Positions 24,001 through 26,414 of a stretch of DNA of 26,414 bases are shown in pieces (positions within the stretch are counted from its first letter, which is position 1; every line of letters begins with the position of its first letter). A program made the position numbers. The DNA is from Escherichia coli (GTDB lineage: Bacteria; Pseudomonadota; Gammaproteobacteria; Enterobacterales; Enterobacteriaceae): the NCBI RefSeq assembly GCF_003334815.1, contig NZ_QOWO01000047.1. The stretch is one strand, 5' to 3'.

Positions 24001-26414
24001 ATAATATGCAGGATGCTGCGAATGCATTAATGGCAGAGTTGGCAACCATTGATCAGCATGGTTTTTCTGCTGAAGAACTCGATGATGTCAAATCTACCCG
24101 CCTCACCTGGCTGAAAAATGCGGTTGATCAGCAAGCTGAACGTGATTTACGTATGCTGACCAGTCGCCTGGCATCCAGCTCATTAAATAATACGCCGTTC
24201 TTGTCGCCGGAAGAGACATATCAACTTTCGAAACGTCTGTGGCAGCAAATTACCGTGCAAAGTCTGGCGGAAAAATGGCAGCAGTTAAGAAAGAACCAGG
24301 ACGCATTTTGGGAGCAAATGGTAAACAATGAGGTTGCCGCCAAAAAAGCATTGTCTCCTGCGGCTATCCTGGCGCTGGAAAAGGAGTACGCCAACAAAAA
24401 GCTGGCGGCTTACGTCTTCCCAGGCAGAAATTTATCGTTAACAGTAGACGCAGACCCACAGGCGGAAATTAGCAGCAAAGAAACGCTGGCGGAGAATCTG
24501 ACATCATTAACACTTTCCAATGGTGCCAGGGTTATTCTGGCAAAATCCGCGGGTGAAGAGCAAAAGCTACAAATTATTGCCGTATCGAATAAAGGCGATT
24601 TAAGTTTCCCTGCGCAGCAAAAATCACTTATCGCGCTGGCAAATAAAGCAGTTAGCGGAAGCGGCGTTGGCGAACTCTCCTCTTCCAGCCTGAAACGCTG
24701 GAGTGCGGAAAATTCGGTAACCATGAGCAGTAAAGTCAGTGGCATGAATACGTTGCTCTCCGTTAGCGCGCGGACTAATAACCCTGAACCTGGTTTTCAG
24801 TTGATTAACCAGCGAATCACCCACAGCACGATTAACGATAATATTTGGGCATCGCTACAAAATGCTCAAATTCAGGCGTTGAAAACGCTCGACCAGCGTC
24901 CAGCGGAGAAATTCGCCCAGCAGATGTATGAGACGCGCTATGCTGATGACCGCACGAAATTACTGCAAGAAAATCAGATTGCACAGTTTACTGCCGCAGA
25001 TGCGCTGGCTGCCGATCGCCAATTGTTTTCATCTCCAGCGGATATCACGTTTGTCATTGTCGGTAATGTCGCAGAAGACAAACTCGTGGCGTTAATTACG
25101 CGTTACTTAGGATCAATCAAACACTCTGATTCGCCATTAGCCGCAGGTAAACCATTAACTCGCGCGACGGACAACGCATCGGTTACTGTAAAAGAACAAA
25201 ATGAACCTGTGGCACAGGTTTCACAGTGGAAGCGTTATGATTCCCGGACACCTGTTAATCTGCCGACGCGTATGGCGCTCGATGCTTTTAACGTCGCACT
25301 GGCAAAAGATCTACGTGTTAATATTCGTGAACAGGCATCTGGAGCATACAGCGTTTCTTCTCGCCTCTCGGTTGATCCTCAGGCCAAAGATATCAGTCAT
25401 TTGCTGGCTTTTACTTGTCAACCAGAACGACATGATGAACTGTTAACGTTAGCGAATGAAGTGATGGTTAAGCGTCTGGCTAAAGGGATCAGTGAGCAAG
25501 AACTGAATGAATACCAGCAAAACGTTCAGCGCAGCCTCGATATCCAACAGCGTAGCGTTCAACAATTAGCGAACACTATTGTAAATAGTCTTATTCAATA
25601 TGACGATCCTGCAGCATGGACTGAGCAGGAGCAATTGTTGAAACAAATGACGGTAGAGAATGTTAACACTGCCGTTAAACAATATCTTTCTCATCCGGTA
25701 AATACTTATACCGGAGTATTATTGCCAAAATAATAACAGCCCCGTCAACACATCGTTGGCGGGGATTTTAGCAATATTCGCTATTTTTATGTAATAATTT
25801 TATAAATGCGTTCAAAATAATAATCAAGTACTAATAGTGATATTTTAAGGTCTGATTTTTACGTGATAATTCAGGAGACACAGAATGCGCATAAAAATAA
25901 CAGCATAAAACACCTTACCACCACCCAAGAATTTCATATTGTATTGTTTTTCAATGAAAAAATATTATTCGCGTAATATCTCACGATAAATAACATTAGG
26001 ATTTTGTTATTTAAACACGAGTCCTTTGCACTTGCTTACTTTATCGATAAATCCTACTTTTTTAATGCGATCCAATCATTTTAAGGAGTTTAAAATGGAT
26101 AAGAAGCAAGTAACGGATTTAAGGTCGGAACTACTCGATTCACGTTTTGGTGCGAAGTCTATTTCCACTATCGCAGAATCAAAACGTTTTCCGCTGCACG
26201 AAATGCGCGACGATGTCGCATTCCAGATTATCAATGACGAATTATATCTTGATGGCAACGCTCGTCAGAACCTGGCCACTTTCTGCCAGACCTGGGACGA
26301 CGAAAATGTCCACAAATTGATGGATTTATCCATTAACAAAAACTGGATCGACAAAGAAGAATATCCGCAATCCGCAGCCATCGACCTGCGTTGCGTAAAT
26401 ATGGTTGCCGATCT

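Follow-up and report, generated by a model that had tools for sequence, protein, structure and literature searches.

The spacer between pqqL and gadB raises the question of whether a 20-bp string in AT-rich DNA upstream of gadB is the GAD box of the gadBC operon, and whether the sequence around it is an intact control region. The DNA analyzed, hereafter the window, is a stretch of 26,414 nucleotides from Escherichia coli contig NZ_QOWO01000047.1 (assembly GCF_003334815.1), to which all coordinates refer. The pqqL-gadB spacer occupies positions 25734-26094 (361 bp), with the gadB ATG from 26095, and is almost certainly the native control region of gadBC in a K-12-like E. coli, with the GadE/RcsB and GadX/GadW workings proposed below. 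In the present analysis the assignment is based on sequence identity, geometry, conservation in the paralogous promoter and conservation across species. The region had been delimited as 25734-26095 (about 360 bp) in an earlier sequence-only reading; its location stands, and its 3' end is corrected by one base, the last base being the start of gadB in the RefSeq annotations of matching genomes. The 362-bp interval composed of the whole spacer plus this base is 100% identical to MG1655 and to many other strains, and 5405 of the 5426 complete E. coli genomes have the spacer upstream of gadB. The main system by which E. coli and Shigella survive extreme acid has the gadBC promoter as its output node. 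With this promoter intact, the strain should retain GadE/RcsB-dependent induction of glutamate decarboxylase.

Identification of the GAD box

The proximal part of the region contains the following features.

25996-26015, + strand: GAD box TTAGGATTTTGTTATTTAAA, site of the GadE/RcsB heterodimer, spanning -72 to -53 and exact against the published string.
26032-26037, + strand: -35 hexamer TTGCTT (3 of 6 consensus positions), the same in gadA and gadB and invariant across strains.
26045-26056, + strand: RcsB box CGATAAATCCTA, which abuts and overlaps the -10 hexamer (repression at high RcsB), placed by alignment with gadA and by Castanie-Cornet 2010.
26055-26060, + strand: -10 hexamer TACTTT (3 of 6 consensus positions), separated from the -35 by a 17-bp spacer, placed by the published geometry and conserved in gadA.
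26067-26068, + strand: gadBC start site, inferred from the center of a chromatin immunoprecipitation-exonuclease (ChIP-exo) peak with its distance of -62.5 and from the description of the box as centered 63 bp upstream.
26082-26088, + strand: Shine-Dalgarno sequence TAAGGAG, 6 nt before the ATG, read from the sequence and the same in gadA and in all aligned strains and species.
26095-26414, + strand: 5' part of gadB (glutamate decarboxylase B), which leaves the window; its translation is the GadB N-terminus, and it is annotated as gadB in MG1655 and in all matching genomes.

The 20-mer at 25996-26015 had been recognized as the GAD box, and this holds: it agrees at 20 of 20 positions with the string printed in Seo 2015 (PMC4918353) and again at 20 of 20 with the box of the gadA promoter of MG1655, with no mismatch to the experimentally defined box. 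It lies upstream of a glutamate decarboxylase gene, as the downstream open reading frame translates as the GadB N-terminus. The end of the box (26015) and the start of TTGCTT (26032) leave a 16-bp gap, and the center of the box at 26005.5 falls at -62.5 from the start site at 26068, a start site taken from published data. The GAD box was described as 20 bp long, with its center 63 bp ahead of the start sites of gadA and gadBC and the box itself 16 bp upstream of the -35 (Castanie-Cornet 2010, PMC2887963). With its 16-bp gap, its center at about -63 and its C-for-G RcsB box, the window thus matches the published architecture base for base.

Conservation

The spacer was aligned with those of six E. 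coli strains (O157:H7, ST131, a Nissle derivative and three others), to which it is 91-96% identical. Between 25986 and the ATG only CAC at 26016-26018, directly after the box, varies, whereas the stretch of about 25880-25985 contains many substitutions and indels. Further upstream, the GadX/GadW block at 25845-25878 and a block at about 25773-25808 are nearly invariant. The GAD box itself is invariant in 7 E. coli sequences and in 9 gadA- or gadB-type promoters of Escherichia. Among complete genomes, 5407 records match the proximal 112 bp (25986-26097), and 5403 of them do so with an identity of 95% or more. For the 112 bp adjoining it on the distal side, megablast matched only 3736 genomes, and 443 of the 3738 records fall short of 90%. 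Across Escherichia the box and the core promoter stay fixed, while the part between about -180 and -85 drifts freely.

The exact 20-mer was also searched for in one genome per prokaryotic species (298 Gb), which yielded 11 loci, 8 of them in Escherichia. These eight are made up of two copies in each of two E. coli-type representatives, two in Escherichia sp. E1V33, and one apiece in E. albertii and E. whittamii. At all eight, the box is located at the same distance from a gadA- or gadB-type start codon, and the -35, RcsB box, -10 and Shine-Dalgarno sequence are kept, with unrelated upstream flanks. The other three loci (one in Lentisphaeria and two in Bacteroidales, all metagenome assemblies) have nothing in common outside the 20-mer, and were rejected as GAD boxes and attributed to chance.

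The same explanation might be extended to the window, the 20-mer then being a coincidental match in AT-rich DNA without a regulatory role. The sequence is AT-rich indeed, and the exact copies in three unrelated metagenome assemblies mean that chance copies arise across 298 Gb. Within the window, however, TTAGGATTTTGTTATTTAAA is present as a single copy even at 3 mismatches, where dinucleotide-preserving shuffles give an expectation of 0.02. The gadA 20-mer is identical despite its diverged flanks, the box does not vary between E. coli phylogroups or Escherichia species and keeps a constant distance to the gad start codon, and a published GadE ChIP-exo peak lies on the 20-mer. Coincidence is therefore given virtually no credence, and the 20-mer is treated below as the native GAD box.

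A natural mutant of the box was encountered in E. coli AR_0085 (NZ_CP029741.1, locus L009, 1444-1604, corresponding to about 26007-26095 of the window), where a deletion fuses a cut-short sulfatase-family gene to the gadB promoter. The endpoint of the deletion lies inside the GAD box, so that the left half and everything upstream are lost, with the -35, -10 and Shine-Dalgarno sequence intact. From this arrangement, poor gadBC induction is predicted for AR_0085.

Probable binding of GadE and RcsB

Protein binding, GadE dependence and RpoS involvement are known from published experiments on the identical sequence of MG1655. Supplementary Table 1 of Seo 2015 (PMC4918353) gives a GadE ChIP-exo peak for gadBC at 1570144-1570175, activating, at a distance of -62.5; the peak was scored with a causal effect on knock-out and with RpoS involvement. 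The coordinates used there are those of an older MG1655 version, and an offset of 1975-1976 bp, deduced here and not stated in that paper, was applied. The peak then maps to about 25990-26021 of the window and extends about 6 bp beyond the box at either end. In RNA sequencing of a gadE deletion, gadB decreased from 2532 to 29 fragments per kilobase per million (FPKM), i.e. log2 -6.44 or about 87-fold, and gadC by log2 -5.85 (Seo 2015, PMC4918353). A second mutant dataset of the same study, taken as the gadX deletion, shows a change of only log2 -0.60 for gadB, which is consistent with the statement in that paper that activation by GadX is less than 2-fold.

The sequence-only reading had regarded the box as a site for GadE. 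The site is retained, and its ligand is refined to a GadE/RcsB heterodimer rather than GadE alone (Castanie-Cornet 2010). This heterodimer was reported to bind the box with an apparent dissociation constant of about 10 nM and to activate transcription (Castanie-Cornet 2010, PMC2887963). According to the original model, which the first reading implied, a GadE homodimer alone binds and activates the box and RcsB is not directly involved at gadB. Castanie-Cornet 2010 (PMC2887963) cites earlier reports in which GadE bound alone and describes GadE as prone to form homodimers in solution, and its heterodimer experiments used only gadA DNA. In the same study, however, maltose-binding protein (MBP)-GadE prepared from rcs mutant cells gave neither a shift nor protection of the box, protection from -50 to -76 required both proteins, and the earlier results were put down to contamination with RcsB. 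The sequence of gadB also argues against the homodimer: the left half of its box equals AAATCCTA, the RcsB-box core, in reverse complement, and gadA has the identical box. The homodimer model is considered improbable, and the heterodimer is preferred for gadB.

The relation between the two boxes was detected as an inverted repeat (I3) that pairs AAATCCTA of the RcsB box with the left half of the GAD box. Its arms, AACATTAGGATTT in this left half and AAATCCTACTTTT at the RcsB box, are 44 bp apart. This repeat gives direct support, at the level of sequence, for RcsB recognition shared by both sites.

No observation speaks against the assignment as a whole, to which the following limits attach. 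The binding and expression data come from the identical MG1655 sequence and not from this strain. The footprint on the RcsB box and the box mutagenesis used gadA, not gadB (PMC2887963), and earlier papers had GadE alone on the box, the stoichiometry still being debated (PMC2887963). The positions of the start site and of the ChIP-exo peaks depend on the inferred offset and are good to +/-2 bp, and the limits of the GadX/GadW site were set by ChIP-exo.

Core promoter and leader

TTGCTT and TACTTT together match 6 of 12 consensus positions and stay below the sigma-70 threshold applied (at least 9 of 12 for TTGACA-N16-18-TATAAT); a scan of the region for promoter and terminator consensus sequences accordingly returned no sigma-70 promoter on the + strand. 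A core promoter of 6/12 that escapes such a scan accounts for the dependence on an activator. The poor consensus match is expected for an activator-dependent promoter that is also able to use sigma-S, and is no argument against promoter function. The same scan returned a weak antisense promoter candidate at 25869-25842 and two marginal hairpins, a promoter yield not above that of shuffled sequences.

The RcsB box reads CGATAAATCCTA in gadB and GGATAAATCCTA in gadA, the sole difference being the first base, C for G. The box was reported to be conserved in gadB save for a C that replaces G at the left end (Castanie-Cornet 2010, PMC2887963). The start site given above leads to a leader of 27-28 nt. 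A ribosome-binding site TAAGGAG followed by the gadB ATG had been proposed at the outset, and both are confirmed, TAAGGAG being found at 26082-26088 and the frame from 26095 giving the GadB N-terminus.

A perfect 12-bp palindrome, TTTATCGATAAA, was observed at 26040-26051, in the spacer between -35 and -10 and overlapping the RcsB box. Every gadB-type promoter examined across Escherichia carries it without variation, and gadA-type promoters are without it. It holds two overlapping 9/10 matches to the H-NS nucleation motif TCGATAAATT. At no more than 1 mismatch, TCGATAAATT has 8 matches in the window versus 3.2 expected, which is too weak to claim an H-NS site by this motif. The suggestion that TTTATCGATAAA is a gadB-specific operator (a symmetric site for an RcsB homodimer or an H-NS nucleation site), by which gadBC would be regulated differently from gadA, is speculative and has little probability.

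Distal region

Three features were located in the upstream part of the spacer.

25740-25764, + strand: terminator-like hairpin with a 10-bp stem and a 5-nt loop, followed by AUUUU (RNA fold -21.2 kcal/mol, z = -6.0 versus shuffles).
25823-25904, + strand: distal GadX/GadW-binding region, about -245 to -164, from the GadX ChIP-exo peaks P6 and P7 of Seo 2015 mapped to the window.
25848-25867, + strand: match of 19/20 to the GadX/GadW motif AKGKCTGWTWTTWWYMYVAK, the motif being that of Seo 2015 (PMC4918353).

The GadX peaks P6 and P7 of gadBC were reported at -184 and -225, both activating (Seo 2015, PMC4918353). The match to AKGKCTGWTWTTWWYMYVAK lies inside these peaks as mapped here and is the only one in the window at no more than 2 mismatches, with 0.14 expected. 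The block AAGGTCTGATTTTTACGTGATAATTCAGGAG in the distal region hardly varies between strains. Another GadX peak, at +66 (signal-to-noise 50; Seo 2015, PMC4918353), maps to about 26114-26154, inside the gadB coding sequence. Upstream of the mapped GadX peaks, the block TATTCGCTATTTTTATGTAATAATTTTATAAATG at 25773-25808 (about -295 to -260) is invariant across the six diverged strains and coincides with none of the published sites considered here.

The hairpin is located 7 nt past the pqqL stop codon. It has only four U after the stem, and the consensus scan made no terminator call; the stem is kept in the six diverged strains with wobble-compatible changes. Judged from structure and position, it is probably the pqqL terminator.

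The spacer has an AT content of 69.9%, compared with 54.6% for the whole window, and a GC content of 26-34% in 100-bp windows, compared with 40-50% in the flanking genes. Among the spacers of the window longer than 200 bp it is the most AT-rich, followed by ydeO-ydeN (67.8%), ydeQ-ydeP (67.0%) and ydeM-yddA (64.5%). Its description as extremely AT-rich is therefore correct as to AT-richness and slightly overstated as to degree, since other spacers reach 64-68% and this one is no outlier.

Proposed mechanism

The following course of events is proposed for the native gadBC region. The hairpin after pqqL would stop transcription of pqqL, and the AT-rich spacer, according to the literature, would be a substrate for silencing by H-NS. 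GadX and GadW, bound to the distal block some 165-245 bp ahead of the start site, would lift this silencing; the silencing by H-NS, its relief through GadX/GadW and termination at the hairpin draw on established knowledge and inference. The GadE/RcsB heterodimer on the box from -72 to -53 would then recruit RNA polymerase with sigma-S or sigma-70 to the weak promoter TTGCTT-17 bp-TACTTT, and the expected outcome is that gadBC is induced more than 50-fold by acid pH and in stationary phase. Abutting the -10, a second RcsB half-site may permit repression when RcsB is highly active. The leader of 27-28 nt would supply gadB with a strong Shine-Dalgarno sequence.

Gene neighborhood

Positions 177-26414 of the window are the reverse complement of E. 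coli K-12 MG1655 NC_000913.3 from about 1,571,727 to 1,597,965, with 99.95% identity. On the + strand, and according to the MG1655 annotation, the gene order is yneO (pseudogene), hipB, hipA, yneL (pseudogene), ydeT, ydeS, ydeR, ydeQ, ydeP, safA, ydeO, ydeN, ydeM, yddA, yddB, pqqL (22938-25733) and the start of gadB. The clustering of ydeP, safA-ydeO and gadB with decayed adhesin loci and hipBA, as pointed out in the sequence-only reading, agrees with this annotation, in which ydeQRST is a fimbrial remnant and yneO an autotransporter pseudogene. The safA-ydeO unit is located as described there; it is not fully intact, as safA contains a premature stop in this strain. Small open reading frames in the spacer (20-37 aa) were considered as genes and rejected, as the part of the alignment in which they fall is the least conserved and carries indels. 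A scan of the whole window at the Rfam gathering threshold matched no RNA family, and hence no known small RNA or riboswitch is present in the spacer.

Strain variants

The part of the window aligned with MG1655 differs from it by 11 single-nucleotide polymorphisms (SNPs) and two 1-bp deletions, in addition to an insertion sequence, IS1, in yneO. Positions 1-176 of the window are the end of an IS1 copy, whose terminal inverted repeat ends at about 165-176 (...GGCAGCATCACC). The insertion point is some 120 bp inside yneO, where MG1655 is without an insertion sequence. The exact IS1/yneO junction in one piece was not found in the 5426 complete E. coli genomes. The two 1-bp deletions relative to MG1655 are both in yneO, at 3886 and 4009 of the window, and long open reading frames extend over 167-3964 and 3925-5475.

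Eight of the ten coding differences from MG1655 are non-synonymous and two are synonymous. At position 14260, in safA (14181-14378), codon 27 is TAA in place of TTA in MG1655 (L27*), and the 65-aa EvgS-PhoQ connector ends after 26 residues. The seven further non-synonymous changes are hipA A358E (7036), ydeT L41F (8259), ydeO P147L (14892), ydeN A144V (16046), yddB I501V (22021), pqqL L76R (23164) and pqqL F185L (23492). The L27* allele of safA is present in one of the 5426 complete genomes, that of strain 52F4, a Swiss calf isolate, whose annotation treats safA as a pseudogene containing an internal stop. Strain 52F4 also has 7 of the 9 SNPs found over positions 7381-26414. Laboratory mutagenesis was considered as a source of the SNPs in view of the 8/10 non-synonymous proportion, and was rejected, as a natural calf isolate has 7/9 of them; the differences are thus natural lineage variants.

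These variants suggest another way in which gadBC could behave in this strain. The cis region would be intact and the EvgS-dependent input altered (safA L27*, ydeO P147L), so that the acid induction of gadBC leans more on RpoS, GadX and GadW. Both changes, TTA to TAA in codon 27 of safA and P147L in ydeO, are in the window, and the annotation of the same safA allele as a pseudogene in 52F4 points in the same direction. YdeO, however, is full length, and the identity of the gadB control region is unchanged by the safA and ydeO variants. Moreover, SafA connects EvgS to PhoQ and is not known to connect it directly to GadE. An altered input of this kind is possible but doubtful, and the assignment of the spacer as the native gadBC control region is the same with or without it.

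Comparison with known systems

The gadB promoter of MG1655 is the same locus: all 361 bp are identical, including the box, -35, -10, RcsB box, Shine-Dalgarno sequence and ATG. There is no difference within the region, and the differences of this strain from MG1655 are all located elsewhere in the window. The gadBC promoter is textbook biology and the copy described here is identical to the reference, so that nothing new is claimed for it. All elements were experimentally mapped between 1999 and 2015 on the identical sequence, and the by-products of the present analysis are a base-level map of the elements and a view of their conservation. Among the studies of this promoter and its GAD box are Castanie-Cornet and Foster 2001, Ma et al. 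2003, Castanie-Cornet et al. 2010 and Seo et al. 2015.

The gadA promoter, from the acid fitness island of MG1655, is like that of gadB in the box, in the spacing of box, -35, -10 and ATG, in the core GATAAATCCTACTTTTTTA, in the Shine-Dalgarno sequence TTTAAGGAGTT and in the first codons. In the alignment of the two, the flanks on both sides of the box have diverged and identity returns at CTTGCTT, GATAAATCCTACTTTTTTA and TTTAAGGAGTT...AAATGGA. They differ in the stretch from the box to the -35 and upstream of the box, and at the RcsB box's left end, which is C for G in gadB. The GadX ChIP-exo peaks of gadB are located about 184-225 bp upstream of the start site, whereas the GadX/GadW sites of gadA are presumably close to the box.

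With respect to the RcsAB/RcsB box, which has half-sites of the LuxR/FixJ type, one core is found, in opposite orientations, in the GAD box's left half (TAGGATTT) and in the promoter-proximal RcsB box (AAATCCTA). This common core was also pointed out in Castanie-Cornet 2010 (PMC2887963). Unlike the RcsB box, the GAD box is asymmetric; its right half, GTTATTTAAA, contains no RcsB half-site, and the box is bound only when GadE is present.

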